A stretch of DNA of 64,000 bases from Nitrospirota bacterium (GTDB taxonomy: Bacteria; Nitrospirota; Thermodesulfovibrionia; Thermodesulfovibrionales; SM23-35): positions 2,456-66,455 of the forward strand of contig JBFMDO010000014.1 in assembly GCA_040753615.1 (NCBI GenBank), read 5' to 3'. How positions within the stretch are numbered: position 1 is the first letter of the stretch; every line of letters begins with the position of its first letter. The notes beneath the pieces are model-generated. The model saw nothing but the letters and a program-made list of their open reading frames with translations. It had not been told where the DNA came from and searched no databases. The position numbers and the translations under genes were made by a program. Shown here in pieces: positions 13,561 to 34,689 of the stretch.

Positions 13561-13605
13561 AGTGAATATAATAAAATTTAAGAATAACTTACGTCAAATG
13601 ACAGG

Positions 13606-14085: not shown

Positions 14086-14383
14086 TAGTTTGCCAATAAT
14101 TTTTATGATATAGCTATCTAAATAATAATTTTCGAAGCTCCCGCCAATCTTTTTTTATCCTGCTTATTTTTCCTCTGACACTGTACTCAAGAATGGTTTG
14201 CAGAATAATATTCCAGCAAGAAATCATAAATTTTGTTATAATACATATGTTTAAGTCGTTTTAATTAACTGATTAGTTTCATGTTTTAACCCTGTCTATT
14301 TTTCCTCTTGTCAAAATTAAAAGGGGTTACAGCTACAGATTGAGATATAATGACTTGCATGGTTACAGGTAAGAAGGAGAACA

Positions 14384-15814
14384 ATGAAAGAAAAGGATAT
14401 TATTGAAGACATCATAGATATAGGTAAGAGGCGCGGAACTATTACTTATGAAGAGATAAATGATGCTCTGCCCTCAGAATATTTCTCGCCGGATGAGTTA
14501 GAAGAACTTACTGACCTTCTGCATGATATAGGAGTTGAAGTTGTAGGCGATCAGGAAACTGACACTACCGAGGAAGAAGCTTTAGTTTCAGGGGAAGAAG
14601 ATGAGTATGAAGAAACAGAGGATATTGTTCAGGCATATTTCCATTCGATGGGGAATATTTCAATACTTACAAGGAATGAAGAAGTAGATCTCGCTAAGAG
14701 ATTGGAAGAGGGAAAAGAGATAATTAGAGAAGTTGTTACAGCACTGCCTTTATACAAGAAATTCGAAATTAAATTAGATGGCAAAGAAGAAGAGGACTTT
14801 AATAATTCAGAAGAAGAAAAGACAGAGGAAGCTCTTGAAATAAGCTTAAAAGTGCTTGAGAATCTTATGCTAAAAATAGAAATAGCAGAGAGAAAGATTG
14901 CAAGATATGGGACTTTAAAAGATTTAAAAAAATTAATAAATAAAAGAAAAAAACAAGGCATCAATTCCATACAACTCAACACCATTGCAAAAGAAGTTCA
15001 AAATGAATATAAGCGAGTTGCATCAGAGGTTGGGATAAAGTTTGATGAATTGAAAACCATGTGGGATAGAATAACCAAGGCAAGAATCCTTGTGAATGAA
15101 GCAAAGAATGAATTAATAACTCGTAATCTGAGATTGGTAGTTAATGTTGCTAAGAATTATATTGGAAGAGGTCTTTCCTTGCTCGACCTTATTCAGGAAG
15201 GCAATATCGGTCTTATGAAAGCTATAGATAAGTTTGACTATAAAATGGGATTCAAATTCAGCACCTATGCAACATGGTGGATAAGACAGGGAATAACAAG
15301 GGCATTAATAGATCAAACAAAGACTATTAGAGTTCCTGTACATATGATGGAATTTTACAATAAGGTTACCAAGGCGTCCAGAGAATTAACTCAACAGCTT
15401 GGAAGAGAACCGAGCAAAGAAGAAATTGCTAAAAGATTGGAAGTTTCAACAGGAAAGGTCGAAGGAGTATTGAGGTCAATACAGGATCCATTAGCGCTTC
15501 AAACTCCAATAGGAGATGATGACGCAAAACTCGAGGATTTTATTAGTGATAAAGATAGTCCTTCCCCATACTCTGATTCGGAAAAAAATAATATCACTGA
15601 GCAGATACTTAGGGTTCTTAGTACTCTAACCCCAAGAGAAGAGAAGGTTATAAGAATGAGATTTGGTATAGGATTTGAGAAAGACCATACCCTCGAAGAA
15701 GTAGGGAGACACTTTTCTATTACGCGTGAAAGGGTAAGGCAAATAGAGGCAAAAGCACTCAGAAAACTGAAACATCCAAATAGACGTAGTGCATTGAAGA
15801 TATTGATCGATTAA
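14384..15814 (+). CDS. rpoD: RNA polymerase primary sigma factor (sigma-70)
   Basis: 476 aa. It has an acidic region 1, region 2 (DLIQEGNIGLMKAIDKFDY, YATWWIRQ) and region 4 (ITRERVRQIEAKALRKL). Confidence 0.93.
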   Translation: MKEKDIIEDIIDIGKRRGTITYEEINDALPSEYFSPDELEELTDLLHDIGVEVVGDQETDTTEEEALVSGEEDEYEETEDIVQAYFHSMGNISILTRNEEVDLAKRLEEGKEIIREVVTALPLYKKFEIKLDGKEEEDFNNSEEEKTEEALEISLKVLENLMLKIEIAERKIARYGTLKDLKKLINKRKKQGINSIQLNTIAKEVQNEYKRVASEVGIKFDELKTMWDRITKARILVNEAKNELITRNLRLVVNVAKNYIGRGLSLLDLIQEGNIGLMKAIDKFDYKMGFKFSTYATWWIRQGITRALIDQTKTIRVPVHMMEFYNKVTKASRELTQQLGREPSKEEIAKRLEVSTGKVEGVLRSIQDPLALQTPIGDDDAKLEDFISDKDSPSPYSDSEKNNITEQILRVLSTLTPREEKVIRMRFGIGFEKDHTLEEVGRHFSITRERVRQIEAKALRKLKHPNRRSALKILID

Positions 15815-18731: not shown

Positions 18732-21455
18732 TCATTTTTTAAAAGAGGTATAATTTCGTTTCCACCATTTTTCAATCTCAACAGTGAAGAACACAATCGA
18801 AGACAATCCTAATGTTATAACCAATTCATTAAAGCTAAGAGGCTCTGTCTTGAATATTGGATTTAAAAATGGCACATATATTGTAGCCATTTGGAGAATA
18901 AAGGTTAAAATGAAGGCACTTAGAAGTGGTTTATTTGATAACAAACCCTGAGCGAAAAGAGACTCCCTCTCGGATCTTATGGCGAGGACATGACCCATCT
19001 GACTGAGACATAATACTGTAAAAACCATTGTCTGCCAGTGAGCATGTCCTGTCTTAATGGACCATGCCTGTGTAAAGATAGATACAAAGCCCATGAGTAA
19101 GCCTACCCAGATGATATGGGCACCAAGTCCATGTGCAAATATACTCTCTTGAGGATGCCTCGGTGGTCTTTGCATTAATCCTTTTTCAGCAGGTTCTGCT
19201 GCAAGGGCAAGACCGGGGAGACCGTCAGTAACAAGATTAATCCACAAAATATGAATCGGCAACAGCGGGATCGGGAGACCGAGAAAAGGCGCGAGAAATA
19301 TTGTCCATATCTCACCCGAATTACTCGTCATTGTATATTTTATAAACTTGCGAATATTATCAAATATCCTTCGCCCTTCCTTTACTGCCTTTACAATTGT
19401 TGCAAAATTATCATCGAGGAGTATCATGTGAGATGCCTCTTTTGAAACATCAGTTCCTGTAATGCCCATGGCAATGCCTATATCCGCCCTCTTTAATGCA
19501 GGTGCATCGTTTACACCATCTCCTGTCATTGCAACGAATTGTCCTTTATCCTGAAGTGCCTTTACTATCTTTAATTTTTGTTCCGGCGCTACCCTCGCGT
19601 AAACCCTTATGTGATCAACCTTTTCTTCAAATTCTTCCAGTGGCAACTTTTCGAGCTCTCTGCCTGTAATTATGTTTTTCTTATCGCTCTCGATTATTCC
19701 AAGCCTTTTTGCTATTGCCTTTGCTGTGAGCGGATGATCTCCAGTTATCATTACAGGTTTTATACCTGCAGTTTTACAAAGCAATACAGCCTCCTTTGCC
19801 TCTTCCCTCGGTGGATCCATCATTCCCACAAGACCTAAAATTATGAGGCTTGTTTCCACACTTTCAGGGGTAATGTCATTCGGCAGATTATCCCACATCC
19901 TCATACCAATACCTAATACTCTCAAACCATCAGCAGCCATCCTATCACTTATTCTGAGGATTTCTTCTGTATTTATGGGTTTTAATCCCTCAGATGTTAA
20001 AATACTGCTGGATTTTTCAATTAAAACTTCTACTGCCCCTTTTGTGAAGGAGATACCCCCCCCTTCGCTCCCCCTTACTAAAGGGGGGATGTGGGGGTGA
20101 GGTGGGTTTTTATGAATTGTTGTCATACATTTTCTTTCTGAATCAAAAGGGATTTCTGCAATACGGGGAATTTTTCTTTCCAGTTCTTTCTTATCAAAGC
20201 CTTCATCCTGTGCAATGTTATAAAGGGCAATCTCTGTTGGGTCCCCTATGATATTGCCTTCAGCATCCATCTGTGCATCATTGCTTAAAGCAAGAGCAGT
20301 CATAAGTATGACATCTGGAGAAGTTGGGAATGTAAGAAATTGAAAAGTTAAGAGTTTTTCAGTTCCTGTTCTTTTCTCGTCTCCTAAATTTCTCAGCTTC
20401 TTATCTTCTGTCTTTACTAATTGCCCATCCACATAAATCTCCTCTACATTCATCTTGTTCAAAGTAAGGGTTCCTGTCTTATCCGAACATATGTATGTAA
20501 CAGAGCCGAGGGTTTCCACTGCAGGGAGTTTTCTTATAAGGCTGTTCTGTTTCACCATCTTCTTTGCCCCAATTGCAAGTGAAATAGTTACTACAGCAGG
20601 AAGTGCTTCTGGTATTGCTGCAACAGCAAGGGAGATGGATGTGAGAAGCATCAAAAGAGGGGGCTCTCCTCTAAGTATCCCTATACCGAATACAATGGCG
20701 CATATGGCTAAAACTGCGATTGCGAGTTTTTGGCCAAACTTGGCAAGCCTTTTTTGAAGAGGAGTTTTTACCTCCTCCTCTTCCTGTAGCATGGTTGCAA
20801 TCTTTCCGAGTTCTGTATCCATGCCTGTTGCTGTAACAACACCCGTGCCTCGTCCATAAGTGACGAACGTTCCCTTGTACGCCATGTTTTTCCTGTCACC
20901 AATTGGCAAATGTTCGTCATGCAATGGCTTGATGTGTTTTTCCACAGGTACGGATTCACCTGTTAATGTTGCTTCTTCAACCTTTAATTGAGCAGCCTCT
21001 ATAATCCTCATATCAGCAGGTACAACCTTCCCAGTCTCAAGAATTACAATATCACCAGGAACGAGTTGATGGGCAGGGATGTTTGCGGGTATCCCGTTTC
21101 TCATTGCTGTTGCAATAGGCGCTGCCATCTTTTTAAGTGCTGCCACTGCCTTTTCTGCCCTGTATTCCTGTATAAATCCGATAATAGCATTAAGGACTAC
21201 AATGACCACTATAGCAATAGTATCTGAAAGTTCACCGATAAATCCTGATATAATTGCAGCGGCTATTAGGACAATGATCATGAAGTCCTTAAACTGGTCA
21301 AGGAGCATCATGAAAGGTGTCTTCTTTTTTGTCTCTTTTAGTTCATTGGGGCCGTATTGCTCAAGCCGCTTTCTGACTTCGTCTTCAGAAATGCCGCGGA
21401 GAGAAGACCTTAACTCATTAATAGTATCTTCTATATTTTTTTGGTGCCAGCGCAT
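18732..21455 (-). CDS. P-type IIA cation-transporting ATPase (SERCA/PMR1-like; predicted Mn2+/Ca2+ exporter)
   Basis: Motifs [28 protein letters not shown] and [15 protein letters not shown]. The ORF-track start at 21500 runs into the leader terminator, so ATG 21455 (MRWHQKN...) is preferred. Confidence 0.9.
20053..20107. repeat. G/C-rich nested-palindrome repeat inserted in frame inside the ATPase gene
   Basis: The sequence ACCCCCCCCTTCGCTCCCCCTTACTAAAGGGGGGATGTGGGGGTGAGGTGGG contains the hairpin TCCCCCTT-ACTA-AAGGGGG. It translates as [18 protein letters not shown] between the conserved [10 protein letters not shown] and ISFTKGAVE. It resembles the palindromes at 25026, 54351 and 61746. 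Confidence 0.55.
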
Positions 21456-21483
21456 AATACTCACTTCTTCTTGAATTAGAAAA

Positions 21484-21515
21484 CCTTTACCACGATCCAA
21501 TATTCGTGGTAAAGG
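21484..21515 (-). terminator. Intrinsic terminator (expression platform of the Mn2+ riboswitch)
   Basis: The minus strand reads CCUUUACCACG-AAUAUUGGAU-CGUGGUAAAGG followed by UUUUCU. The 5' arm overlaps the 3' P1 strand of the aptamer (GAGACCUUUACC). Confidence 0.65.
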
Positions 21516-21876: not shown

Positions 21877-21913
21877 TAGTGTTATCTATCCTTAGTAGCA
21901 TTGTCATGTTGTT

Positions 21914-21997
21914 TTATAACACAACAATGGACAATGGATTAAAATGCAAGAAACAAGACTTGACCCCCTGATCCCCTTTTCCTTATAAGTGTTAGGC
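21914..21997 (-). other. attC-like element after the DUF2283 gene
   Basis: The minus strand starts with GCCTAAC (an RYYYAAC core) whose TAA is the DUF2283 stop codon. TAACAC pairs with GTGTTA 70 nt downstream (GTGTTATAA). It contains the conserved 19-mer. The R' core is non-canonical. Confidence 0.4.
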
Positions 21998-22216
21998 ACT
22001 TTTCCGAATCAATTTATTATCAAGTTCAAGTTCGTAGGAGAGGATTGTTTTAATGTTCATCTTCTTGGATGCATTAAGGATTTCTATTCCGACTATCTTA
22101 TTTTCAGATGTTGTATCTAAATTGACACCCTCAGAAATCTCAACGACGCCGTCAGGTTTCTGATTCCCTAATTTAATATATATGGCATCAACCTCATTAT
22201 CATAATGTACTCTCAT
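21992..22216 (-). CDS. DUF2283-family small protein (antitoxin-like partner)
   Basis: 74 aa. MRVHYDNEVDAIYIKLGN...GIEILNAS is the DUF2283 (YuzE-like) pattern. Its start overlaps the upstream ORF in an ATGA. Confidence 0.75.
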   Translation of the reverse strand: MRVHYDNEVDAIYIKLGNQKPDGVVEISEGVNLDTTSENKIVGIEILNASKKMNIKTILSYELELDNKLIRKSA

Positions 22217-22440
22217 CTTTTCCTCCCTTTCTTAAGCGGATAATTTGTTACTATGGTTGTTAAATCTTCCTCAACGAAGACAACAATCTTCAAGGGATAC
22301 TTAAATTCAGGAACATCTCTTATAATTTCATGTTCGCCTTGATGCAAATTCATGCTCTTTAAAATGTCTATTACCATTGACTCTGAAATTCCGTAAAGTT
22401 TTGCCCGCCTTTTAGCATAGCGCTAAAATTTTATTTCCAT
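22213..22440 (-). pseudogene. DUF4258-like toxin gene with in-frame TAG at codon 6
   Basis: The minus-strand translation is MEIKF*RYAKRRAKLYGISESMVIDILKSMNLHQGEHEIIRDVPEFKYPLKIVVFVEEDLTTIVTNYPLKKGRKR, with the stop at 22423-22425. It overlaps DUF2283 by 4 bp. It was absent from the ORF track because of the stop. Confidence 0.55.
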
Positions 22441-22602
22441 CAGATATTACCTTTTTAAATTATAGCTTTTTTAGCAAAAAAGAGGCAATTTTATCGCCCA
22501 ATGCCCTATGAATGATTCGTTAGGCTGAAAATCTATTTCTTGAATGGATATTTAGTCCCCTCTTTGCCAGTATACGGATTATAATTTCCTTTTGTGCCAT
22601 AA

Positions 22603-22767
22603 TTGTTGAATTTCGATTTGTCCCTTGATACGTTTGATGCCATTCAACTCTCCATATGCATAGGATTAAAACCTATTGCTCTGATCTCAAGGGATAAGGA
22701 TTTTATAAAAATCTCAAAGCAATTTACTAAAGCTTTTACACCCGAAGAATTTTTATACAGCATCTGA
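22603..22767 (+). pseudogene. Possible PIN-domain (VapC-like) C-terminal fragment
   Basis: The open frame reads LLNFDLSLDTFDAIQLSICIGLKPIALISRDKDFIKISKQF... The D-A-x-x-L...LISRDKDF part resembles PIN C-terminal motifs. There is no N-terminal half. Confidence 0.3.
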
Positions 22768-23030
22768 AGTCTTTTAATTTGCTGAAGGGAGATTTAATTT
22801 TGCTTTGTGTTCAGCATTTATTTCATTCCTGTGGACAGTCGGACAAGACACCTAATGAACTAATATGGGAAGTTTTACTATGTTTCTATATTATGCTCTC
22901 CTTGCAATTTGCAAGAAACAAGACCTGATAATATGATTCGCTCTACAAATACCTCCCCACTATACCCTGATTCATCTCCTTCTCATATGGTCAGCACAGA
23001 GTGGAGCAGCGTGCATATTATAAGTAAGGA

Positions 23031-23321
23031 TTAGGTGACTAACGGTTCAAGATCGAATTTAACAGTAGGGACAGAAATTCTTGGCGATTTGGCAATCCGC
23101 TCTGAACTTTCTATTAATTTCAAGATTAATCGTCCCACATCAGCCTTAACGACCTTCTCTCCGCAACGTGGACATACGCCTGCAGGAACATCCTCCACAA
23201 TAATAAGTTCCCCTCGCAACCAAAAATCCTGTTTGATAAGCTTTTCCTGCATTTGAGTACCACAAATCTCGCATTCTCCATAATTATATTTTGTCTTTTT
23301 TCTCATTATCTTATTCCTCAT
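23031..23321 (-). CDS. YgiT-type zinc-finger protein (MqsA-N-like antitoxin candidate)
   Basis: 96 aa with CEICG...(30)...CPRCGE, a four-Cys zinc ribbon. It overlaps the upstream DUF4258 gene by 4 bp. Confidence 0.7.
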   Translation of the reverse strand: MRNKIMRKKTKYNYGECEICGTQMQEKLIKQDFWLRGELIIVEDVPAGVCPRCGEKVVKADVGRLILKLIESSERIAKSPRISVPTVKFDLEPLVT

Positions 23322-23593
23322 AAAGCATAAGTTGTAATTAATAATAATTTCCCCGTGTTTTTAATTCTACAAATAACTGCTATTTTCCTCCCATCAATTG
23401 CAGAACCAATAACCTCATAACGTGTTCCTCTGGGATCACGTGTAAACTTACGATTTATTCGGCCATTGCAAATTGCTATTTCAATATCCTCGAAAGTAAG
23501 ATTGTCGTTAGCCATCTCTTCAAAAAAATGTGGGATTGTAAATTCATATTCCTGCCCTTTAATTTTTTCTCTTATAATATGGATAATAGCCAA
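23318..23593 (-). CDS. DUF4258-family protein (toxin candidate)
   Basis: 91 aa with FTIPHFFEEMANDNLTFEDIEIAICNG...PRGTRYEVIG...KLLLITTY, typical of DUF4258. It uses a TTG start with AGAGGT upstream. Confidence 0.7.
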   Translation of the reverse strand: MAIIHIIREKIKGQEYEFTIPHFFEEMANDNLTFEDIEIAICNGRINRKFTRDPRGTRYEVIGSAIDGRKIAVICRIKNTGKLLLITTYAL

Positions 23594-23864
23594 TAATATT
23601 GACCTCTGACATTATCATTTATAATATTAGTATAGCATAACTCATAAGCTATCATGGCATATCGTATATCGTATATTATTTCGAGTGCTTGAGAAGGGCG
23701 AAGCCTTTAGGTGTTAACCTCGATCACCATGTTATCTATTGCTGAGAGCACCCTAAAAATACAGGCAGTGGAGCTATTAAAAATATCACCTTGAACTTGT
23801 TTCAGGGTCTCGTAACACATTAATTTATCTCGATGTTGGTTTATAACGTAACAATCGCTTAAAA

Positions 23865-23937
23865 TGCAAGAAACAAGACCTGACCCCTATGCCTCGCGTC
23901 TTGCAAGAAACAAAACCTGACCCCTATGCCTCGCGTC
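23865..23937. repeat. Two tandem 37-bp units carrying the conserved 19-mer
   Basis: TGCAAGAAACAAGACCTGACCCCTATGCCTCGCGTC, then T, then TGCAAGAAACAAAACCTGACCCCTATGCCTCGCGTC. The two units differ at one position. Confidence 0.85.
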
Positions 23938-24000
23938 TTCTGTTCGATTCGCATGGTTGTGAGGTGCTTCGCACCGAGCAAACATGCGAATACTCCTCAT

Positions 24001-24090
24001 TCGCACCGTTGTTGAGCCGCGCCAGCCACAGACCTTACAGAAAACTCTGCGACGTTTCACGGCGTCGGCTCGAACAACTGGTTATGTGGC
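24001..24090 (-). other. attC-like recombination site (best candidate)
   Basis: Minus strand: CACATAAC-CAGTT-GTTCGAGCCGACGCC-(37 nt)-GGCGCGGCTCAAC-AACG-GTGCGAA. It begins 8 nt after the PIN gene stop. It forms an imperfect hairpin with unpaired bases. The inner arms closely resemble the class 1 aadA attC as I recall it. Confidence 0.6.
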
Positions 24091-24093
24091 GTT

Positions 24094-24558
24094 TTAGCTT
24101 TCAAGCTCAGCGAGCATTTCGTTGATGTTGGCACACTTACCACGAAAACTTTTCGTAACAGCCACAAGATCAGTATCTTCAGTAACCAGCGTAATATTAT
24201 TTTTGATAGCTGTCTCGGCGATCAGAGCGTCCTGAATGTTGTTTGGTTTATTTTTATTCCGCTTGTCTATCTCTGCTTTGACTTTTGAATATAGATTGTT
24301 TTCTTCGTCTCCCAGTTTTGCTTTGTCGAGCCGGGAGACATCCAAGACAAATGACTCGGTTGGAACCTCATTGTTTTCTGAAACTTCCTCGAACACAGAA
24401 ATGAGTTCTTGGCGTCTTTGGGTATTTGAAGTTGCTTTTAGTTCGTCAAGCTGAACGTGGGTTGCGCAGAAATGCGCCTTTGTGCGGAATTTAGTAATTT
24501 CAACCACACCATCGAGGATACGGTTAAAAATATTTGTATCGAACATGTAACTTGGCAT
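24094..24558 (-). CDS. PIN-domain protein (cassette-borne)
   Basis: The likely start is ATG 24558 (MPSYMFDTNIFN...), preceded by GAGGGA. The motifs are the N-terminal DTN and the C-terminal DALIAETAIKNNITLVTEDTD. Confidence 0.75.
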   Translation of the reverse strand: MPSYMFDTNIFNRILDGVVEITKFRTKAHFCATHVQLDELKATSNTQRRQELISVFEEVSENNEVPTESFVLDVSRLDKAKLGDEENNLYSKVKAEIDKRNKNKPNNIQDALIAETAIKNNITLVTEDTDLVAVTKSFRGKCANINEMLAELES

Positions 24559-24571
24559 GGTCGTTCCCTCG

Positions 24572-24628
24572 CCACATAACAAGTTATTATGTAGTTAACT
24601 CGATAATACCAGAAAGTTCTTATGTGGT
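24572..24628. other. Imperfect 57-bp palindrome at the integrase-proximal cassette boundary (attI/attC-like)
   Basis: The minus strand reads CCACATAAGAACTT...(26 nt)...ATAACTTGTTATGTGG. The GTTATGTGG end is complementary to the CCACATAAC core of the attC at 24081-24090. Confidence 0.35.
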
Positions 24629-24689
24629 CAAGATAACAAATATGAGATGCTTGACGTAACTTTTTAATTTTAGTAGATTATTTAACCGA

Positions 24690-24713
24690 CTAATATTCCA
24701 AATGGAATATTAG
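24690..24713. promoter_or_regulatory. Perfect 11-bp inverted repeat upstream of the integrase remnant (operator candidate)
   Basis: CTAATATTCCA-AA-TGGAATATTAG lies 20 nt upstream of ATG 24733. A second dyad, TTAGTTA-GAAAA-TAACTAA, overlaps it at 24710-24728. Confidence 0.4.
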
Positions 24714-24732
24714 TTAGAAAATAACTAATACC

Positions 24733-25195
24733 ATGCAAAAAGTTCCATATGATATTTGGGATCAATATGTGGCATTCCTAAATGCTAAGGTGAAAGATGT
24801 TTCGCAGCATGAAAACCTCAAAAAATGGTTTTTATACTTCTGGGACTTCCGTGCCAAATACCGTCCGCCAGATTCCAGATCCGAGCAGGTACGTTCGTTT
24901 ATCGAAAAGCTTCAGAACAAGGGACAGTCACAAAACAGGCGGCCCATGCAGTATCGCTTTATTTTGAGTCTCAGAATGCAGAGACAAAGGCTGAGGCAAC
25001 AACCCCGGCACCCAGAGAATCATAACTCCCCCTATCCCCCTCTTATCTTAAGAGGGGGATAGGGGGAGTTAATATTAAGGGGAAATTTTCAGACTTTTCG
25101 AAGATCAGGCAGGGTCATTATAGTGAATGGCGATGCCTTGAGAAATCCGGATCTCCGGCGTGGGAAAAGGTCATCTCCGAAAAAAGATACAAAAC
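24733..25195 (+). pseudogene. Tyrosine recombinase (integron-integrase-like) N-terminal remnant
   Basis: Frame 1 reads ...LKKWFLYFWDFRAKYRPPDSRSEQVRSFIEKLQNKGQSQ. It continues in another frame as KQAAHAVSLYFE, so there is a frameshift near 24930. This is the SAM-like N-terminal domain pattern. No catalytic domain is present. The remnant is interrupted by the palindrome at 25026-25068 and ends at lplA. Confidence 0.5.
25026..25068. repeat. Perfect 19-bp-stem G/C-rich palindrome
   Basis: CTCCCCCTATCCCCCTCTT-ATCTT-AAGAGGGGGATAGGGGGAG. It is related to the second hairpin of the 120-bp repeats at 54281 and 61676. Confidence 0.85.
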
Positions 25196-25987
25196 ATGAT
25201 CATGGATGACTGGCGTTTTATTGATACAGGGGCATGCGGTGTAGCCTATAATATGGCTCTGGATGAGGCTATTGCTACTTTTGTAAGAAAAGGTATCTCC
25301 CCACCAACGTTAAGGTTTTATGGATGGACCACGCCATCTGTAACCATAGGATATTTTCAGAAGATCAAAAATGTTGATATTGAATATTGCGCCCAAAGAA
25401 ACATATCTGTTGTGAGAAGATTAACCGGGGGGCGCGCGGTTTTACACTATGATGAACTTACATATAGTTTCTCTGCAAAAATAGGAAGAGGTTTTTTTTC
25501 GAAAGGGTTGTTTGATAATTATAAAAAGATCGGTTACGCCCTTGCATATGCACTATCAGCAATTGGTCTTAATCCAGAATTAAAACTAAAAAGAAAAACC
25601 TCTGGAATAAGAAATCCCCTGTGTTTTCAATCAACATCGTATGGTGAGATTACTATAAATAATAAGAAGATCATTGGTTCTGCCCAGAAACAATGGGAAG
25701 ATTGTCTCCTTCAGCAGACTTCAATACCATATTCTTTAAATAAAGAAGAAATATGTAAGGTATTCAGGTTTGAATATGGTCAAATATTAAGAGAACAGAT
25801 GCTTGGTTTAAGAGACATTTTTCCAGAGTTAAAGACTGATGATCTTAAAAATGCAATTAGGAATTCATTTGAGGAAATTTTTGGTGTAAGGTTTATCCAT
25901 GCATCTCCTTCCGAGTTGGAAATATCTTTGGCAAAAGAGACTGAAGCACAAAGATACCTGTCAGAACAATGGAATTTTAATATGTAA
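25196..25987 (+). CDS. Lipoate-protein ligase / octanoyltransferase family (BPL_LplA_LipB domain)
   Basis: Motifs are WRFIDTG, YNMALDEAI, LRFYGW, RRLTGGRAVLH and GSAQK. ATG 25196 is preferred over the GTG 25160 of the ORF track. Confidence 0.8.
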   Translation: MIMDDWRFIDTGACGVAYNMALDEAIATFVRKGISPPTLRFYGWTTPSVTIGYFQKIKNVDIEYCAQRNISVVRRLTGGRAVLHYDELTYSFSAKIGRGFFSKGLFDNYKKIGYALAYALSAIGLNPELKLKRKTSGIRNPLCFQSTSYGEITINNKKIIGSAQKQWEDCLLQQTSIPYSLNKEEICKVFRFEYGQILREQMLGLRDIFPELKTDDLKNAIRNSFEEIFGVRFIHASPSELEISLAKETEAQRYLSEQWNFNM

Positions 25988-26009
25988 TTAATATGTAATT
26001 TTGCAAATC

Positions 26010-26025
26010 TGGCACGTCTTTTGCT
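26010..26025 (+). promoter_or_regulatory. Sigma-54 promoter (-24/-12)
   Basis: TGGCAC-GTCTT-TTGCT matches the TGGCAC-N5-TTGCW consensus exactly. It lies about 20 nt upstream of the 26041/26047 start. Confidence 0.6.
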
Positions 26026-26040
26026 ATATTTTAAGTAGAG

Positions 26041-26559
26041 GTGTTTATGAACAATTTAGAAGGAAAACTGAAACTTCAGAATAGGTTATTAAAATCCGTG
26101 CTGGTTTCATTACTCTTTTTCGTACCCATTTCTCATATTAATTCTGCAGAACCCACATTAGAGAATACGTTAAAGACAGCTATGGCTGAAGAAATAAAAG
26201 TTCATACTGCACTGAAAATAGTATTTCAGACTCCAGAGCTAATTATAACTCCTGCTGACATTATTCGCGGATACATAGACATTCCAGATGCTGTTCATGC
26301 TGAAATCCAAAATAATAATCTGGCTGGTTATCTGATCGTCTTTGAAGGATTAGGCGAATACTTCAAAGAGGCAGTGGTTAAAGGACTTGGAAAAGATACC
26401 ATTATTAGCTCTAATGGCGGATGGATTGCCCAGCCTTATAATGGTAAAGACCCTGTTATGATTGAACTAAGTTTCAGGTTTATTTTATCAGAAAACATTA
26501 CTCCCGGAACATATGCGTGGCCCCTGAGTATCTCGGTCAGTCCTATAATTCCAGTATAA
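26041..26559 (+). CDS. Secreted protein of unknown function
   Basis: 172 aa with a signal peptide (LLKSVLVSLLFFVPISHINSA/EP). The C-terminus is PGTYAWPLSISVSPI. I recognise no family with confidence. Confidence 0.6.
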   Translation: MFMNNLEGKLKLQNRLLKSVLVSLLFFVPISHINSAEPTLENTLKTAMAEEIKVHTALKIVFQTPELIITPADIIRGYIDIPDAVHAEIQNNNLAGYLIVFEGLGEYFKEAVVKGLGKDTIISSNGGWIAQPYNGKDPVMIELSFRFILSENITPGTYAWPLSISVSPIIPV

Positions 26560-26567
26560 AAAATAAT

Positions 26568-26611
26568 AAGAGTAAGCCCCCCTGCTTAAAGGACCCAAAG
26601 GGCTTACTCTT
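26568..26611. terminator. Bidirectional terminator hairpin
   Basis: A 12-bp stem AAGAGTAAGCCC / GGGCTTACTCTT between convergent genes, with T-rich flanks on both strands. Confidence 0.6.
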
Positions 26612-26624
26612 TATTTAGGTTAAT

Positions 26625-26984
26625 TTATCTTCCTACGAGGATTGGTGCGTCATGACTGGAAATAATAGCTTCAGCAACCATTTCCTTGCCTGTATGGGTA
26701 GATTTTGTTATATTTTTTAGGGTATGTTCTTTCCCGCAGAGTTTTCTTCCAATATCTTCTGCGCTTAAATCTGCAAATTCTTGAGGAGTGCTTGCCCACG
26801 TAGTGGGTCCTATAATAACGGGTTGTCCCTCACTATACCCCACGAACATAACGCTTACGGTTTCATTTTTGCTGTCGTATGTAGCTGATAGTGTTCCGAC
26901 CATAGTGGAATCAGCATAAACCAATGTTGTTCCCATTATCATTAGCGATAACAGGATAGTGAATAATACCACTTTTTTAATCAT
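26625..26984 (-). CDS. Small secreted protein of unknown function
   Basis: Start ATG 26984 is preceded by AGGAGGGAG. The signal peptide is MIKKVVLFTILLSLMIMGTTLVYA/DS and the protein is 119 aa. Confidence 0.6.
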   Translation of the reverse strand: MIKKVVLFTILLSLMIMGTTLVYADSTMVGTLSATYDSKNETVSVMFVGYSEGQPVIIGPTTWASTPQEFADLSAEDIGRKLCGKEHTLKNITKSTHTGKEMVAEAIISSHDAPILVGR

Positions 26985-27015
26985 TTTTTTCTCCCTCCTG
27001 AAAACAATTATTTTT

Positions 27016-27231
27016 TTAAAATCCTCCAATTTTTCCTAAATCGAAACTATTTCTGACATCATCTTCATGGCTGATGCCTTCCCGATTTAGGACATTCCAT
27101 AATTCCCCAAATAGTTCTTCGATATTCGAAAATGTTATCTTCCTATTTATTTCAACATCCTCTAATATCCCAATAATATCGCGGGAATTAGTATCATCAC
27201 GACGATAAACACGAATAACATAACTTTCCAT
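27016..27231 (-). CDS. Small cytoplasmic protein of unknown function
   Basis: 71 aa from ATG 27231 (MESYVIRVYRRDD...GILEDVE...FSNIEELFGELWNVL). It lies directly downstream of the STAND regulator and no family is recognised. Confidence 0.45.
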   Translation of the reverse strand: MESYVIRVYRRDDTNSRDIIGILEDVEINRKITFSNIEELFGELWNVLNREGISHEDDVRNSFDLGKIGGF

Positions 27232-27308
27232 GAAATTCTCTCTTGTTTGTAAGATAATTAAGGATATCATATTAAATGTTACAAATGAGTTACGGATTAA
27301 TGAAAATT

Positions 27309-30300
27309 TTATTCAGGGAGCAAAGATTTATAAATAGCCTTTGTTTTAGTGGAAGGTTCGATGCCTAAACCTGTATAAAGAGCGCTGCGGCAACGATTAT
27401 AAATAGTCAATGCCTCTGTCTGCATGCCGAGACGGACATAACAGGACATGAGACGCTGGTAAAATTCTTCTGCAAGATCATCTACTTCAAGTCCTTTATG
27501 GTAACAATTTATAGCCTTGTTAAAATCTCCAACCTCCTCCCAGTAATAGCTTAATCTTCTGACATTTCGCAGAAACTTACTTCGCAGACGTTCACGAAAG
27601 GACACTGTCCATGGTTGGTCTATTTCTTCAGCCAGAAATAGACCTTTGTACATCTCAACTGCCTTTTCAGCTAATTGCACAGTCTTGATGTCAGTCTCTA
27701 TTATTTCTTTTTCCCATGCTTTTTCAATTTGTCCTATTATTCGCTCAAATGCCCAGACATCCACGTAGCAATATCGGGGATCTAACGTTACACGACTCTC
27801 TCGAAGCTGGATAGCCTTTTCATTGCCGATTAATTTACGAAGGCGGTGTAAAGTTGTAGCAAATGACTTATGAGCCACGTCACCTTCTGCATCCTTCCAG
27901 AGTATATCTATTATCTGTACTTCACTTACTTCCTTTCCTCCAAGTGTAATTAGCACCTTTAATAAAGCGAGCGGTTTCTTTTGCACCTTTCTTGAAAACC
28001 GAAGTGGTTTTCCGCCCTTTATTAATTCAAACCCTCCCAGAGTGTATATTTTTAACGGCCATGGCCAATTTTCTATATGGACTGGGGGAATATCAGGGAT
28101 AAGTTCACGTTTTTTTACAATATCCTTGACATATTCAACCTCTATTCCGGATTCAATAGCTTTTATGCAGAGTTTTGTCATGATAGTCGCACGCCATATA
28201 AAGATGTTTACATAACCATGCCTTTTTCCTATATCCATTGCTTTGTTAAGTAACATCAAGCCAGTTTCTTCTTCACCATGGTCAAAGGCAAATTGAGATT
28301 CGCTTAAAAAACACATAAATTCAATAAAATGGCTGTTGATTTCTTTACCAATGCGGCTTGAAAGGCGAAGCAAGTCTTCCGCCTGTTTCTGTTCTCCTGT
28401 CTCATGCATTATCTGTGCTTTTGCTAAGTAGCAAACAGCCTCATTTTGGGGGAACCCTGCATTAAATGCTGATTTTAAGGCTAAATCCGCATGTAGTAAT
28501 GCTTGTGTCATATCGTTTTTTATCAAGGCTTCCCATGTTAACAGTAAATGGTAAAAACTTTTGTTTAATGCACGGGAATTTACTATGGAGAGGGCACTCT
28601 TCTTGAGTAACTTTTTAGACGTTCCTGTCTCACCTTTACTCAGAGCATTTGCTACACCGCACCCTAATAAAAGGTCATCCATTATATGGATTTCGGTCAT
28701 GTGGGCTAATTCTATGCCATCAGATATTGTTTTTTCACATTGCTCGGGCATTGCCATTAGAAAGTAATAAAATGCTTCTACACTTTTAAGATGCAGCAGA
28801 TATAAAGGCGGAACAATACCTGATTCGATTACCTCCTTTAAAGAGTCAATCATCAGTGCTGCTTTTGCAAAATCTCCTGTAAACAGTCTGTGCCATGCAA
28901 AATATAAAAGTGTCTGCATCCTCGTGGTAATATCCTCGCAGTCCTGTGAAAGTGATAAAGCACGTTCAGCCCATGAATCAAGCTCTGGATGTTCTGGATG
29001 TCTTAATACCATGATTTTGAACATACAAGATGCTACACGGGCTTCGATCTCCTTTGAAGGGAATCCTTTAAAGCCAGTAATGGGTTCATTTAATAAAGAA
29101 AACCATTTGTCAAGACGTTTAAACACACGGTCATAAATAGTTGACTCAACTGCCGCAGTGGAAGCCAATAATATACCAGATGTATCTTGCTGGTCATTAA
29201 AAATTTTAAATGCCTGTTCAAAATATCCGTAACTTTCATCAGGATTAAATGGCATGTAGCACATACCCTTCCAGTAAAGAAGCCAAGGGGTATTTTCGAC
29301 AATATCTTTGGATAGACTGTTTATCCATCTTATAAGGGTTTTATTTTTTCCCTCTACTATCATAGACCCTGCATATCTATAAATCAGTTTGATAAGTTCA
29401 TCCCAGTTACGAGTCTCTGAGAAAAGCCTTGCTGCCTCCTCAATTAGATTAAACTCCACCAAAATTGAACTAGCATTTTGCTGTGTCCTTAAGAGATCAT
29501 CTGGCAGTAAAAAATCCTTTGCGCGTAATAAAAGGAATTCCTTAAATAAAGGGTGATACCGATACACAGGGTCCGCCTCTCCGGGTCCTAAGTATTTTTC
29601 TAAAAAATAATTATTCCGATTAAGATGCATAAGGATACGGTCTGCCATGTGATGACCAGTAAGATTTTCAGCCATTTTAGAAGTAATTTGTGGTAGAAAC
29701 GCAGTCTTGAGCAAAAAGTTTCTAATTTCTTCATCTGCATTTTCAAAAACCTCTGTCGAAAAATAGTCAAATATCTCTTCAGGTATAAATTCATTAAGCA
29801 GGTGAAGATCAATCTTTTCTTTTCTTGCCCTCTCTAACATCAATACAATACCCGCTACCCAACCATCTGTCTTGTTATATAAAGATTGAATTATGTCTTT
29901 CGAATATTTTCCTAATCTCTTTCTGACTATCTCATCCATTTCTTTCAGTGTAAATTTGAGTTCGTTCCAGCCTATAACCGCAGGCAAATAGTCTGTGCGC
30001 ATTCGTGCCAAGACAGGAGGGATATCGCTACGGCTAATAAAGATGATATTTATATTTAGAGGAAGTTCGCTTAATCCAATTTTAATCACCTCTTGAAATA
30101 ATGATTTTGACTGTACATTTTGGTAGTTGTCAAAAACCAATATAAACGGGTAGGGTAGTTTGCCGTAAAAATTATCAAAATATTGACGGGCAAATTTGGA
30201 GATGTCTTTCTGGCATTCAGGAGTAAAAATAGGTAAAGGAATATTTTTCTGTTTTTTAATCTTTTCAGCCTTCATACTCATGTAATTAAAAAAGTTTCCT

Positions 30301-30530
30301 ATTTTTGCGTCACTTTCATTAATCCTGTACCACAAATTAGGTAGACGGTATGCCTCAAGGTAACTGCTGACGAGGGTGGTCTTGCCAGAACCTGCTGGGC
30401 CTGATATCCAGATGACAGGGCGATTACGACCTTTATCAATGATTTGAAAAAGCCTTTCTCTAAGACAAATATCTATCATGGACGTATGATTTTTTTTAGC
30501 TAAAGACATATGGGCTTGTTTTACCATCAT
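27309..30530 (-). CDS. STAND NTPase (MalT-like) fused to C-terminal SARP module (OmpR-type wHTH + BTAD)
   Basis: 1073 aa. The N-terminus has RERLFQIIDKGRNRPVIWISGPAGSGKTTL (Walker A) and ILVFDNYQ (Walker B). The middle region is helical and TPR-like. The C-terminus has LKIYTLGGFELIKGGKPL...LHRLRKLIG (wHTH) followed by a BTAD-like LAEEFYQRLMSCYVRLGMQTEALTIYNRCRSAL. Confidence 0.8.
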   Translation of the reverse strand: MMVKQAHMSLAKKNHTSMIDICLRERLFQIIDKGRNRPVIWISGPAGSGKTTLVSSYLEAYRLPNLWYRINESDAKIGNFFNYMSMKAEKIKKQKNIPLPIFTPECQKDISKFARQYFDNFYGKLPYPFILVFDNYQNVQSKSLFQEVIKIGLSELPLNINIIFISRSDIPPVLARMRTDYLPAVIGWNELKFTLKEMDEIVRKRLGKYSKDIIQSLYNKTDGWVAGIVLMLERARKEKIDLHLLNEFIPEEIFDYFSTEVFENADEEIRNFLLKTAFLPQITSKMAENLTGHHMADRILMHLNRNNYFLEKYLGPGEADPVYRYHPLFKEFLLLRAKDFLLPDDLLRTQQNASSILVEFNLIEEAARLFSETRNWDELIKLIYRYAGSMIVEGKNKTLIRWINSLSKDIVENTPWLLYWKGMCYMPFNPDESYGYFEQAFKIFNDQQDTSGILLASTAAVESTIYDRVFKRLDKWFSLLNEPITGFKGFPSKEIEARVASCMFKIMVLRHPEHPELDSWAERALSLSQDCEDITTRMQTLLYFAWHRLFTGDFAKAALMIDSLKEVIESGIVPPLYLLHLKSVEAFYYFLMAMPEQCEKTISDGIELAHMTEIHIMDDLLLGCGVANALSKGETGTSKKLLKKSALSIVNSRALNKSFYHLLLTWEALIKNDMTQALLHADLALKSAFNAGFPQNEAVCYLAKAQIMHETGEQKQAEDLLRLSSRIGKEINSHFIEFMCFLSESQFAFDHGEEETGLMLLNKAMDIGKRHGYVNIFIWRATIMTKLCIKAIESGIEVEYVKDIVKKRELIPDIPPVHIENWPWPLKIYTLGGFELIKGGKPLRFSRKVQKKPLALLKVLITLGGKEVSEVQIIDILWKDAEGDVAHKSFATTLHRLRKLIGNEKAIQLRESRVTLDPRYCYVDVWAFERIIGQIEKAWEKEIIETDIKTVQLAEKAVEMYKGLFLAEEIDQPWTVSFRERLRSKFLRNVRRLSYYWEEVGDFNKAINCYHKGLEVDDLAEEFYQRLMSCYVRLGMQTEALTIYNRCRSALYTGLGIEPSTKTKAIYKSLLPE

Positions 30531-30607
30531 AGGATATATTTAGAAGATATTAAATCATTTATAAATTGTCAAGGAAGGTCTACCTAAAAATTGCTTAACC
30601 AAAAATA

Positions 30608-31594
30608 CTACCTTATAAAAAACTGAGTGATATATCTTAATGCCAATGAGATAATAATAATTCCGAGCATGAGTTTAATGAACTTCTGGGGGACAAACTT
30701 TTGAAACCTTGCGCCGAGATATATTCCGATAAACCCACCTGCCCCAAAGAGAAAACCGAGAAGCCAATCTGGTGAAGTAACCATTCCACCCGGTGACGGT
30801 ACCACGCTGTAAAAGAAGACGCCTGCAATGGAGGTTAAAAAAGTCCCCATTAATGCTGCGCCTGCAACAGTGTAAACAGGCAGGTGAAAGACAGCCACAC
30901 AGAAGGGTGCTATTATTGCTCCTCCTCCAATTCCATATGTGCCACCTATGATCCCAACAATGAAGGCAAGGAAAAACATGCCTATTGTGCTGAATGAAAA
31001 TCTCTCTCCCCAGAATTCATATTCTATCTTTTTAAGACTAACCGAGACGGTTTTCACTATTGCTTCTGGGGGGAGTCCTGATGCGATCCTACTTTTCTGC
31101 TGTTCCTTGATCTGTCGCGTTCTTTCCCTGAATTTATCTTCGAGTGCCTTCATTTTTGACTTTCCGACTGATGCCTTTCCTGTAATTTCATAAATAAGAC
31201 GAATGCCAATATAAAGTAAAACGCATCCCACGAAAAATTTGAATGCCATCGGGTCTGGGAGATAAAGTACCCTGAGATAATATCCTATGAATACCCCCGG
31301 TAATGTTCCAATAATAACTATATTGGTTAGTGGCCATGCCATTCTACCTTCCTTAAGATAGCGGTAGACCCCGCTCGGGATTGCAACAATATTATAGACA
31401 AAATTTGTAGCGCTTACAGAAGGGCTTGTAAAATGAAGAAAGCTCATCTGGAATGGAAGTAATAAAAATGCACCTGAAACACCACCCATAGATGTAAAAA
31501 AAGAGACAACCAGTGCAACAAGGGGTGGGATAAAGATATAAGTTTTTACACCTGATGCAGAAAAAATAACTTGTAGAGAATTCAAAACATCCAT
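30608..31594 (-). CDS. TauE/SafE (DUF81) family anion exporter-like membrane protein
   Basis: A polytopic membrane protein with two halves separated by a charged loop of about 60 aa. The start is probably MDVLNSLQ (31594), not 31642. Confidence 0.65.
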   Translation of the reverse strand: MDVLNSLQVIFSASGVKTYIFIPPLVALVVSFFTSMGGVSGAFLLLPFQMSFLHFTSPSVSATNFVYNIVAIPSGVYRYLKEGRMAWPLTNIVIIGTLPGVFIGYYLRVLYLPDPMAFKFFVGCVLLYIGIRLIYEITGKASVGKSKMKALEDKFRERTRQIKEQQKSRIASGLPPEAIVKTVSVSLKKIEYEFWGERFSFSTIGMFFLAFIVGIIGGTYGIGGGAIIAPFCVAVFHLPVYTVAGAALMGTFLTSIAGVFFYSVVPSPGGMVTSPDWLLGFLFGAGGFIGIYLGARFQKFVPQKFIKLMLGIIIISLALRYITQFFIR

Positions 31595-31648
31595 TTTGCC
31601 TTTCTTATTGACAGCAACAAATTTTTCATAGTATAGTAACACAAAACA

Positions 31649-31732
31649 GGCGATGGGGTTCGCCTTTAACCGTTCCGGTTGATCGGAAATAATGACCCCT
31701 ACTGAGACAAATAGTTTCGGTAGGGGTTTTTT
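31649..31732 (+). promoter_or_regulatory. Fluoride riboswitch (crcB motif) with terminator, copy 1
   Basis: GGCGAUGGGGUUCGCCUUUAACCGUUCCGGUUGAUCGGAAAUAAUGACCCCUAC is followed by the terminator CCCCUACUGA...UCGGUAGGGG and UUUUUU. This matches the recalled consensus GGCGAUGGnGUUCGCC...AACCGC...CUGAUGAcnCCUAC. Confidence 0.85.
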
Positions 31733-31768
31733 AATTTATTCCCCTTCCGAATAAAGGAGGAACAGATA

Positions 31769-32905
31769 GTGGAAAACCAATGGCTTCAGGCAACACTATG
31801 GATAGGGCTTGCACTTGCTGCAACGCTTATTTCTTTACGGATAGCAGTTTCTATTGCACTCATTGAAATAATTGCAGGAGTTATCGGGGGGAATTTCCTC
31901 CCGCTTCAGAGGACAGAATGGGTAAACTTCCTTGCAGGATTTGGCAGTGTACTCTTAACATTTCTTGCAGGGGCAGAGGTGGACCCCATAGTGATGAAAA
32001 AAAAGTTTAAGGAGAGCGTGACCATAGGGGTGCTGAGCTTTTTTGGTCCATTTATAGGTGTTATGGCATATGCTTACTATATTGCAGGATGGAGCCTGCC
32101 TCAATCACAAATAGCAGGGATAGCACTTTCAACTACTTCTGTTGCGGTCATCTATGCTGTGATGATAGAGACTGGATATAATAAGACAGAACTCGGCAAG
32201 ATTATACTTGCTGCCTGTTTTATAACTGATCTTGGAACTGTCCTTGCCCTTGGTATTCTCTTTGCAACGTATGACCTGTATATGGTGTTATTTATTGCTG
32301 TCACAGCGATTGTTTTATTCTTGCTTCCAAGATTTACTCCATGGTTTTTTAGAAAGGTCGGGAGTCGAATTAGTGAGCCTGAGACAAAGTTTATCTTTTT
32401 CTTACTCTTTGGTCTCGGCGGGCTTTCATTAATGGCGAAAAGCGAGGCTGTGCTTCCTGCGTATCTTGTCGGAATGGTTCTCGCACCTTTTTTTCTTGAA
32501 AATAAGACCCTTAGCCACAGGATGCGTGTTATAGCCTTCACTATGCTGACACCGTTTTATTTTATTAAAGCAGGCTCACTCGTCAAGCTCTCAGCAATAT
32601 GGGACTGTGCATTTTTAATAACTATATTCCTTTTGATCAAAATGGTAACAAAATTTATAGGAGTATGGCCACCTACTAAGGTATTTAAGTTCGGAAAAAA
32701 AGAGGGTATGTATACTACTTTGCTGATGTCAACAGGACTTACATTCGGCACTATCTCTGCACTTTTTGGTTATACGAATAAGATAATAGATCAGGAGCAA
32801 TATACTATTCTTGTTACTGCTGTTATACTTTCAGCAGTAGTGCCGACAATAATAGCCCAGACATGGTTTCAACCGAAGATGAAAAAGGAGGATGATAATG
32901 TTTAA
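31769..32905 (+). CDS. Cation:proton antiporter (Na+/H+ exchanger family, CPA2-like)
   Basis: 378 aa with about 11 TM segments. It uses a GTG start after GGAGGA and has the Na_H_Exchanger-like pattern LLTFLAGAEVD. Confidence 0.8.
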   Translation: MENQWLQATLWIGLALAATLISLRIAVSIALIEIIAGVIGGNFLPLQRTEWVNFLAGFGSVLLTFLAGAEVDPIVMKKKFKESVTIGVLSFFGPFIGVMAYAYYIAGWSLPQSQIAGIALSTTSVAVIYAVMIETGYNKTELGKIILAACFITDLGTVLALGILFATYDLYMVLFIAVTAIVLFLLPRFTPWFFRKVGSRISEPETKFIFFLLFGLGGLSLMAKSEAVLPAYLVGMVLAPFFLENKTLSHRMRVIAFTMLTPFYFIKAGSLVKLSAIWDCAFLITIFLLIKMVTKFIGVWPPTKVFKFGKKEGMYTTLLMSTGLTFGTISALFGYTNKIIDQEQYTILVTAVILSAVVPTIIAQTWFQPKMKKEDDNV

Positions 32906-33320
32906 GAAAATCTTAATTGCCAATGATGGCTCAGATGGTGCAAAGCATGCATTACGGGTTGCGATAGATATTGCAAAGAAATATAATGCCGAACTTCACA
33001 GCATATCAGTTGAAGAAGGTGTTCCGCATTATGCTGCGACTATCGGCGAAGTCGAGGAATTCAGAAAAGAAGCAAATGATTATTTCAAGAAGATTAATGA
33101 CGAAGCAGTGGAAGCTGCAAGGAAAGAAGGCATTGAATTTCATACTAAAGTACAGGCAGGTCATGAAGTGGAGACAATCATAAATTATGCAAAGGAAGAA
33201 AAATTCGATCTATTAGTTATTGGATTTATGGGGCATTCGAAGATATTCGGAAGGATATGGGGTTCGACCTCACAGAACATAACAAAACTTTCTCCTTGTA
33301 CTGTTATTGTGGTAAAATAG
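32892..33320 (+). CDS. Universal stress protein (UspA family)
   Basis: 142 aa with KKILIANDGSDGAKHAL...DLLVIGFMGHS...GSTSQNITKLSPCTVIVV. Confidence 0.85.
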   Translation: MIMFKKILIANDGSDGAKHALRVAIDIAKKYNAELHSISVEEGVPHYAATIGEVEEFRKEANDYFKKINDEAVEAARKEGIEFHTKVQAGHEVETIINYAKEEKFDLLVIGFMGHSKIFGRIWGSTSQNITKLSPCTVIVVK

Positions 33321-33326
33321 CCTGAA

Positions 33327-33405
33327 GGCGATGGAGTTTGCTTAACCGTTCCGTATAATCGGAACTGATAACTCCTACCGAAGATATTTTTGGTAGGAGT
33401 TTTTT
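33327..33405 (+). promoter_or_regulatory. Fluoride riboswitch (crcB motif) with terminator, copy 2
   Basis: GGCGAUGGAGUUUGCUUAACCGUUCCGUAUAAUCGGAACUGAUAACUCCUAC is followed by the terminator ACUCCUACCGA...UUGGUAGGAGU and UUUUU. It aligns with copy 1 along its full length. Confidence 0.85.
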
Positions 33406-33449
33406 AGTTTTCAAACAATAAAGAACTCCTCTACACTATAATATGACGT

Positions 33450-34610: not shown

Positions 34611-34689
34611 CGATTTCAATTATATTTATGCAATAAAATCTTTTATGGAAAAAATTGGAACAAGCTACCACATCTAATTGTGAATAATC

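Follow-up and report, generated by a model that had tools for sequence, protein, structure and literature searches.

Between a P-type ATPase gene and lplA of a Nitrospirota chromosome lie, in this order from lplA, the remnant of an integron integrase gene (intI), an attI site, a cassette with a PIN-toxin gene and its attC site, and then a run of repeats, short genes and gene fragments (Table 1). The locus belongs to a stretch of 64,000 nt, which was analysed as a whole and is called the window below. We consider it very probable that the locus is a pseudo-integron in which a stump of intI, the attI and a single fixed PIN cassette are left. As a genomic fossil it is genuine but of an ordinary kind. 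A previous sequence-only reading of the same DNA proposed an integron-like platform. That proposal holds for the recombinase fragment, which belongs to an integron-integrase family, divergent from attI and a PIN cassette with an aadA-like attC; it is not supported for the array of 2.8 kb. Loci and proteins fetched for comparison are designated by L and P numbers.

Table 1. Features of the interval between the P-type ATPase gene and lplA (positions are those of the window)
Feature	Position	Strand	Basis or remark
P-type ATPase gene	18732-21500	-	left border of the interval
ORF (open reading frame), 67 aa	21673-21876	-	no Pfam or NCBIfam match
Left end of a REP-associated tyrosine transposase (RAYT) element, followed by a decayed ~30-nt remnant of the transposase gene start	21880-21968	-	comparison with the intact elements of L007, L034, L039, L076, L092
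Repeat within the RAYT left ends of this table, four copies	21946-21963, 22911-22928, 23866-23883, 23903-23920	-	repeat search
DUF2283 gene and upstream short toxin-like ORF with an in-frame stop	21992-22450 (DUF2283: 21992-22216)	-	DUF2283, 56.4 bits
C-terminal PIN fragment	22603-22767	+	PF01850, E 0.055, profile positions 88-119
Further partial RAYT end	22850-22928	-	repeat alignment
DUF4258 toxin and YgiT-type zinc-finger antitoxin module	23031-23642	-	DUF4258, 46.8 bits; TIGR03831, 51.9 bits; own upstream region of ~50 nt
Two tandem RAYT left ends	23823-23924	-	inner copy keeps the promoter/5' untranslated region (UTR) to the start codon
GC-richer stretch after attC, 118 nt	23888-24005	-	composition; internal inverted repeats
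attC of the PIN cassette, 88 nt	24000-24087	-	R'' ACATAAC (24087-24081); L'' to L' 24075-24011; R' GTGCGAA (24006-24000)
PIN gene cassette, 574 nt	24006-24579	-	first position at attI
PIN-domain coding sequence, 154 aa	24094-24558	-	PF01850, 29.3 bits
attI and intI promoter/operator region	24580-24732		crossover between 24580 and 24579; minus strand AATAACTTG/TT (here and below the slash marks the crossover)
intI pseudogene remnant	24733-25181	+	N-terminal extension only (~150 codons); frameshift near 24930; cut before the IntI core
G/C-tract palindrome, 59 nt	25018-25076		28-nt arms, 93% complementary; in the integrase linker
lplA	from ~25197	+	right border of the interval; PF21948, 99.5 bits

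The presence of a truncated recombinase abutting lplA, frameshifted near 24930 and devoid of a catalytic domain, was claimed earlier for 24733-25195 and is borne out; we refine it to the N-terminal extension of a long-form IntI, which stops ~15 nt before lplA. The fragment is composed of the ORF 24733-25062 and shifted frames: frame 1 from 24733 reads MQKVPYDIW...KLQNKGQSQ, the second frame continues KQAAHAVSLYF, and past the palindrome reading resumes with ...HYSEWRCLEKSGSPAWEKVIS. In tblastn, residues 1-67 of the L130 IntI match 24733-24933 (88% identity) and residues 71-168 match 24933-25181 in another frame (42%); residues 169-479 have no match anywhere in the window. The palindrome brings a stop codon into this copy, in accordance with the suggestion that the recombinase is interrupted near 25026.

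The family was established using the repaired (frame-corrected) fragment as a protein query, which gave 31 close proteins; a profile search gave 2,108 cluster representatives. In the alignment of the homologues the N-terminal module is conserved and the linker after it variable; the motif NEWRCLEKSxSPxWDxVI follows, and EIKTRHYSRKTLKAYADW marks the start of the canonical core. The integron integrase model TIGR02249 (cut-off 265 bits) scores 364 bits on P0041 and 382-389 bits on the integrases of L130, L132 and L134, whose upstream DNA is the most window-like. In full-length relatives the match is one stretch covering model positions 2-313 of 315 and protein residues ~165-478; therefore, the model does not reach the first ~165 residues, which form an extension. 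A comparison of the fragment with known recombinases had been advised together with the original claim; it joins the extension to TIGR02249-positive cores in the full-length relatives tested. The extension is a weak second SAM-like domain (PF13495, 36.1 bits in the homologue P0026 and 16.8 bits in the repaired window copy). This retained SAM-like part is distinct from the canonical SAM domain of IntI; the latter has been lost as well. The IntI core, including the IntI-specific additional domain, is absent from the window and present in the full-length relatives that share the extension; the window copy is therefore a remnant and not a functional integron integrase. Intact ORFs of 445-508 aa are found in at least 47 of the 80 metagenome loci, and so the long-form IntI family appears to be functional; several other loci carry genes truncated like the window copy.

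The second component is attI. The 230 nt preceding intI were aligned between the window and eight relatives. The conserved block (7-8 related loci) extends as far as AAC/CAGTTATT (plus strand), the equivalent of AATAACTGG/TT when read on the strand of the cassette, and the sequences are unrelated beyond it. Of 83 loci, 38 have the motif AATAACTKG/TT (K is G or T) 140-255 nt, mostly ~150 nt, before the intI start codon, and the sequence after its TT differs locus by locus. The window has the junction AATAACTTG/TTATGTGGCG at 153 nt from the intI ATG, which is the signature of an attI with the first cassette inserted at G/TT. The window thus retains, next to the intI remnant, an intact intI-proximal attI with a G/TT cassette junction, as is characteristic of integrons. 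The inverse core reported earlier at the 5' edge of the cassette, as expected for insertion at G/TT, is also there; GTTATGTGGCG occupies 24570-24580, one base below its original placement.

A perfect 12-nt inverted repeat, ACTAATATTCCA / TGGAATATTAGT, lies at 24689-24714 of the window, 20-45 nt upstream of the intI start, and is conserved in all close relatives. Judging by its sequence and position, it is a candidate operator for integrase expression.

The third component is the PIN cassette. Its protein is 100% identical to P0174, a protein of a Nitrospirota metagenome-assembled genome (MAG) at NCBI, in which exact protein matches (P0174 and P0294) assign the window to a 74-kb contig, and has close homologues at 76-88% identity in several contexts. 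Homology with L211 and L208 begins exactly at the crossover G/TTATGTGGCG: in the three-way alignment, identity rises from 18-32% before the crossover to 89% within the cassette. In L213 and L214 the PIN gene is flanked by attC matches (before it, 41.9 and 35.9 bits; after it, 34.5 and 30.5 bits); these two loci have different neighbour genes, and both PIN copies begin with G/TTATGTGGCGAGAGAACGACCATG. The 5' boundary G/TTATGTGGCG is common to L211, L213 and L214. We have, therefore, a promoterless ORF with a TT 5' end and a 3' attC, found as a unit in different arrays; on these sequence comparisons, 24006-24579 is a genuine integron gene cassette.

The attC of this cassette reads CGCCACATAAC-CAGTT-GTTCGAGCCGACGCC...GGCGCGGCTCAAC-AACG-GTGCGAA. 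The L211 site is nearly identical, CGCCACATAAC-TAGTA-GTTCGAACCGACGCC...GGCGCGGCTCAAC-AACAC-GTTAACC, and its R' is canonical; the 5' arms of the two share 80% identity, and the L208 attC lacks anything after R''. The hairpin that had been pointed out right after the PIN stop exists: it folds at -24.2 kcal/mol (z = -3.6), and T24065 and G24072 bulge out when the bottom strand is folded. These two are the extrahelical bases that characterise attC sites. Both the L''/L' stem with such bases and the length (88 nt, the range for attC being 57-141 nt) are those of an attC. The pairing of R'' (RYYYAAC) with R' (GTTRRRY) is lost; ACATAAC fits in 6 of 7 positions, and GTGCGAA pairs over 2 bp only.

The likeness of the arms to the aadA attC, noted in the sequence-only reading, proved correct. 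The class 1 aadB/aadA2 attC sites, which we fetched, read GTCCAAGCCGACGCC...GGCGCGGCTTAAC; the inner arms of the window site, GTTCGAGCCGACGCC...GGCGCGGCTCAAC, are nearly identical to those of aadB and share both extrahelical positions. Each L box differs from that of aadB in one base, and the differences are compensatory (A to G paired with T to C). Unlike the class 1 aadA/aadB sites, the window attC has a terminal loop of 37 nt (not 7), ACATAAC as R'' and GTG (not GTT) in R', and its host context is an environmental Nitrospirota chromosome. A blastn comparison of the hairpin with plasmids gave no attC match, the query being too short.

Covariance models were constructed for attC. Class 1 arrays were fetched from plasmids and their attC sites read off; R1 was made from six trimmed class 1 sites, and R2 was retrained on 32 sites, both models being home-made. 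Across the 80 metagenomic loci R1 found 29 sites, the majority of them upstream of intI on the opposite strand and often several per locus; R2 gave 47 matches at E<=0.1 in the same loci with unchanged geometry. The long-form intI loci are ordinary integrons, and the window shares their geometry. With the filters off, the PIN attC is the best R2 match in the window (19.6 bits, E 0.011); the match is partial (positions 13-47 of 60) because the R' GTG cannot pair with R''. As a detector R1 was abandoned: it missed the long-loop attC sites as well as the window hairpin and was useful only to seed R2.

Two side observations concern the arrays of this family. In L134 (four attC sites) and also in L129, L132, L135 and L142, every or the first cassette opens after G/TT with the same small GC hairpin, e.g., TTCCCTCCCTCGCTTCGCTCGGGA. 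The metagenome contig of L188 carries at 12572-15363 a class-1-type array downstream of and co-oriented with the long-form intI; it has an aadA-like attC at 69 bits, and one of its cassette starts reads GTTAAACATCATGAGGGAA.

Several points weigh against a pseudo-integron with a PIN cassette and should be stated together. Taken alone, the window fragment matches no integrase hidden Markov model (HMM) above threshold, and its IntI identity comes via homology of the extension. The R' of the attC is GTG, i.e., a defining core is missing; R2 matches only the L''-L' subtree of the site, and the class-1-only model R1 did not report it. Finally, in the Logan assembly of SRR29635778 (the same sample) the stretches 21939-23968 and 24695-34717 recur with 100% identity, but its contigs are interrupted to the left and right of the PIN/attI segment (23968/23969 and 24694/24695) and also at a RAYT end (21939); the joins around PIN/attI therefore come from the MAG assembly only.

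The first of these points could suggest that the region is a generic toxin-antitoxin or defence island of a phage-type or integrative-conjugative-element-type tyrosine integrase, the hairpin being a terminator or a REP sequence; the abundance of toxin-antitoxin genes and mobile-element scraps in the region is of the same sense. Such an island should not have an extension that is joined to TIGR02249-positive cores in every full-length relative tested, a conserved attI with its crossover, or a hairpin homologous to the attC of the same cassette in real arrays. We find this explanation scarcely credible; it is already contradicted.

The last point bears on the assembly itself. The PIN cassette and attI segment (~23969-24694) might be a mis-join from another integron of the community via the conserved attI/intI 5' region, in which case the true locus would be the integrase stump beside lplA only. 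The Logan contigs, identical to the window on both sides, do end and start at the borders of this segment; the attI/intI 5' region is highly conserved between organisms and could therefore tangle the assembly graph; and the NCBI MAG is the sole recorded source of the exact PIN protein. Nevertheless, the MAG contig is continuous over both junctions, and contig breaks at repeats (the RAYT ends and the conserved attI) are expected even with a correct join. In L004, 38 nt of the region conserved ahead of intI are present, and attI must therefore follow there. The composition has no independent sign of chimerism beyond that expected of a foreign cassette. We consider a mis-join improbable.

The breaks around PIN/attI and at the RAYT end may reflect strain heterogeneity or repeats that other genomes of the sample also contain.

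We thus return to the pseudo-integron and propose the following history. A long-form IntI-family integron was formerly resident at the locus, and the PIN-toxin cassette entered its first position through attI x attC recombination at G/TT. The clean attI crossover at the 5' junction implies that the 3' junction was presumably G/TT as well; the simplest explanation of its present state is that a later point change or small deletion turned G/TT into G/TG. A deletion took the whole IntI core and fused the stump to the upstream region of lplA. Lacking both an integrase in cis and an unbroken R box, the cassette would be fixed in place; it is probably still transcribed from a promoter on the attI/intI side. 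The array downstream of attC, if it was ever longer, would have been replaced or overwritten. The earlier opinion that the platform is inactive agrees with the deleted core and the broken R' of the PIN attC.

The locus is similar to the sedentary chromosomal pseudo-integrons described by Nemergut et al. 2008 (PMC2426708), with an intI pseudogene divergent from attI and a promoterless attC cassette, decay via frameshift, stop codon and deletion, and toxin gene cargo; about one third of the intI genes in genomes are pseudogenes (PMC2426708). It differs from them in that only the N-terminal extension of intI, one recognisable cassette and a broken R' core are left. We believe that this is a documented case of the death of a chromosomal integron, with the integrase cut to a stump, the first cassette frozen and the remainder overwritten by mobile DNA. 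Cassette and attI boundaries can be proved via metagenomic arrays even where attC models fail; tools that demand the IntI core or at least two attC sites would overlook this locus altogether.

What lies 3' of the attC is debris: four solo RAYT left ends, two toxin-antitoxin modules that stand alone, and fragments of genes; cassette boundaries are absent from all of these units. The sequence-only reading had described here a minus-strand run of short ORFs with further attC cores and had recommended an attC covariance model as the check. Apart from the single partial match to the PIN attC on the minus strand, R2 with filters off finds no second attC at E<=0.1 in the 64-kb window. The next match is 22489-22525 (13 bits; E 0.026 in a local search), which is 37 nt long and has no L boxes. 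The RYYYAAC motifs offered as evidence of further attC sites are at or below the level of chance (78 in the window, 114 expected), with no attC model match. One GCCTAAC is indeed at 21991-21997; the second is at 22519-22525 and not at 22528-22534. The label of a CALIN (cluster of attC sites lacking an integrase), proposed for the run, is unfit: a CALIN by the IntegronFinder definition needs at least two attC sites and there is one here. The locus resembles a CALIN in having no functional integrase beside attC and differs from it in this number and in the intI stump and attI still present.

Among the genes assigned to the run, the PIN, DUF4258 and DUF2283 genes (29.3, 46.8 and 56.4 bits) and the zinc finger stand. 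The supposed second DUF4258, i.e., the short ORF with a stop upstream of DUF2283, has no Pfam or NCBIfam match, and neither it nor the supposed Rhs fragment has an HMM match; the PIN fragment placed on the minus strand lies on the plus strand. The 67-aa ORF may resemble an Rhs core fragment (YYLMYDQIGSLRALTD). Likewise, the 36-aa ORF at 22533-22643 (minus strand), ending with ...GNYNPYTGKEGTKYPFKK, is presumably similar to a pre-toxin TG-type polymorphic-toxin fragment, which would fit the nearby Rhs-like fragment.

Over ~600 nt, the DUF4258/YgiT unit shares 83-86% DNA identity with copies that lie in toxin-antitoxin islands and within an operon for a liv ABC transporter. We found no attC in 26.7 kb of its seven other contexts; it is a free-standing toxin-antitoxin module and not a cassette. 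The DNA likeness of this module spans distant contexts and phyla (L215-L225), and the placement in the liv operon is found in one lineage.

It could still be supposed that the whole run of 21.9-24.6 kb is a decayed CALIN-like array with its other attC sites eroded past recognition. Its units are short and mostly co-oriented, toxin-antitoxin genes are typical integron cassette cargo (PMC9668308), GCCTAAC follows two ORFs, and the RAYT ends stand just past ORF stops, where attC would be expected; the PIN attC of L208, cut right after R'', is a precedent of erosion, and the weak full-model match at 22489-22525 (13 bits) might be a trace of a site. This match is too short for an attC, and RYYYAAC is not enriched. 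The GTTATAA able to pair with the GCCTAAC at 21991 is the RAYT element's own sequence, the DUF4258/YgiT module is without attC elsewhere, one fragment is on the opposite strand, and no second attC was detected in the window at the above threshold. In our opinion an eroded array is unlikely, and the pseudo-integron with a single cassette is preferred.

The stretch 23888-24005 next to the attC has no match in any fetched locus except the adjoining RAYT end; it may be a stub of a second cassette. The window's neighbouring genes were compared with all fetched loci by tblastn, and no shared synteny was found.

The only repeat between the units of the debris, unremarked in the sequence-only reading, is TGCAAGAAACAAGACCTGACCCC: four copies in one orientation, found in this region of the window only, with spacing of 965, 955 and 37 nt. 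It was first a candidate for the attC of the lineage and was rejected: it does not fold (z about -0.7), and a scan of the genome collection identified it as a RAYT element end. The scan found TGCAAGAAACAAGACCTGACCCC in more than 116 loci, many of them of Thermodesulfovibrionia/Nitrospirota and some of other phyla. In intact elements (L036, L039, L062, L109) the end precedes MARPLRIEYDGAVYH genes, and inverted pairs ~918 nt apart flank a 282-aa protein starting with MARPLRIEY, which is a REP-associated tyrosine transposase (NF047646, 98.6 bits). A RAYT element is a Y1 transposase gene flanked by inverted REP-like ends. The window has remnants only: no RAYT transposase coding sequence is found there, and the transposase promoter/5'UTR is kept up to the start codon in two of the copies of the end. 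In intact elements the 23-nt ends flank the Y1 transposase gene in inverted orientation, as in known RAYT elements or REPtrons; unlike these, the window has same-orientation solo left ends without the gene, and the end sequence is conserved over several phyla.

RAYT ends are rare in integron loci (2 weak matches in 80). It is tempting to propose that RAYT elements home to single-stranded attC hairpins and so erode cassette arrays, which is a more speculative idea; if true, it would explain the four ends packed beside one surviving attC.

Other observations on these elements are as follows. The 23-nt end GGGGTCAGGTCTTGTTTCTTGCA is exactly conserved across several phyla, among them Nitrospirota, Burkholderiales, Wenzhouxiangella, Aminicenantes and an archaeal MAG (loci L005-L120). 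In many copies, a variable sequence of 8-15 nt plus GGGGTCA, duplicated in tandem, stands before it. The spacing of 965 and 955 nt in the window is close to the length of an intact element (~918 nt).

A by-product of this study is the large long-form IntI family with its own conserved attI, which may merit study. A clade of IntI from Deltaproteobacteria ~120 aa longer than usual was noted in 2008 (PMC2426708). As in this 'clade 15', considered a gene fusion (PMC2426708), an extra N-terminal region precedes the IntI core in our family, which is apparently functional, being conserved. Our extension is ~165 aa (~120 aa in clade 15) and comes mainly from groundwater and sediment metagenomes; we infer the identity of the two groups. 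We suggest with much reserve, and regard as rather doubtful, that the long-form IntI family is a distinct and abundant integron lineage of groundwater and sediment bacteria. Its traits may be the extra N-terminal SAM-like domain, the motif NEWRCLEKSxSPxWD, the conserved attI AATAACTGG/TT and the 12-nt inverted repeat before intI. If this is so, the added domain would putatively bind accessory sites in attI or the operator.

The palindrome in the integrase linker deserves a separate remark. An Rfam scan of the region gave nothing except chance microRNA matches, which fall on this palindrome. It is translated in frame as NHNSPYPPLILRGG in the integrase homologues P0003 and P0004. Short G/C-tract palindromes (CCCCCTCTTA..TAAGAGGGGG) occur within coding sequence at four places of the window: 25018-25076, 20056-20090, 54357 and 61754. 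The one in the P-type ATPase gene is read through as 11 residues, and that in P0003/P0004 as SPYPPLILRGGSEAGG; in being read through inside genes, the palindrome resembles the in-frame palindromic elements of Rickettsia.

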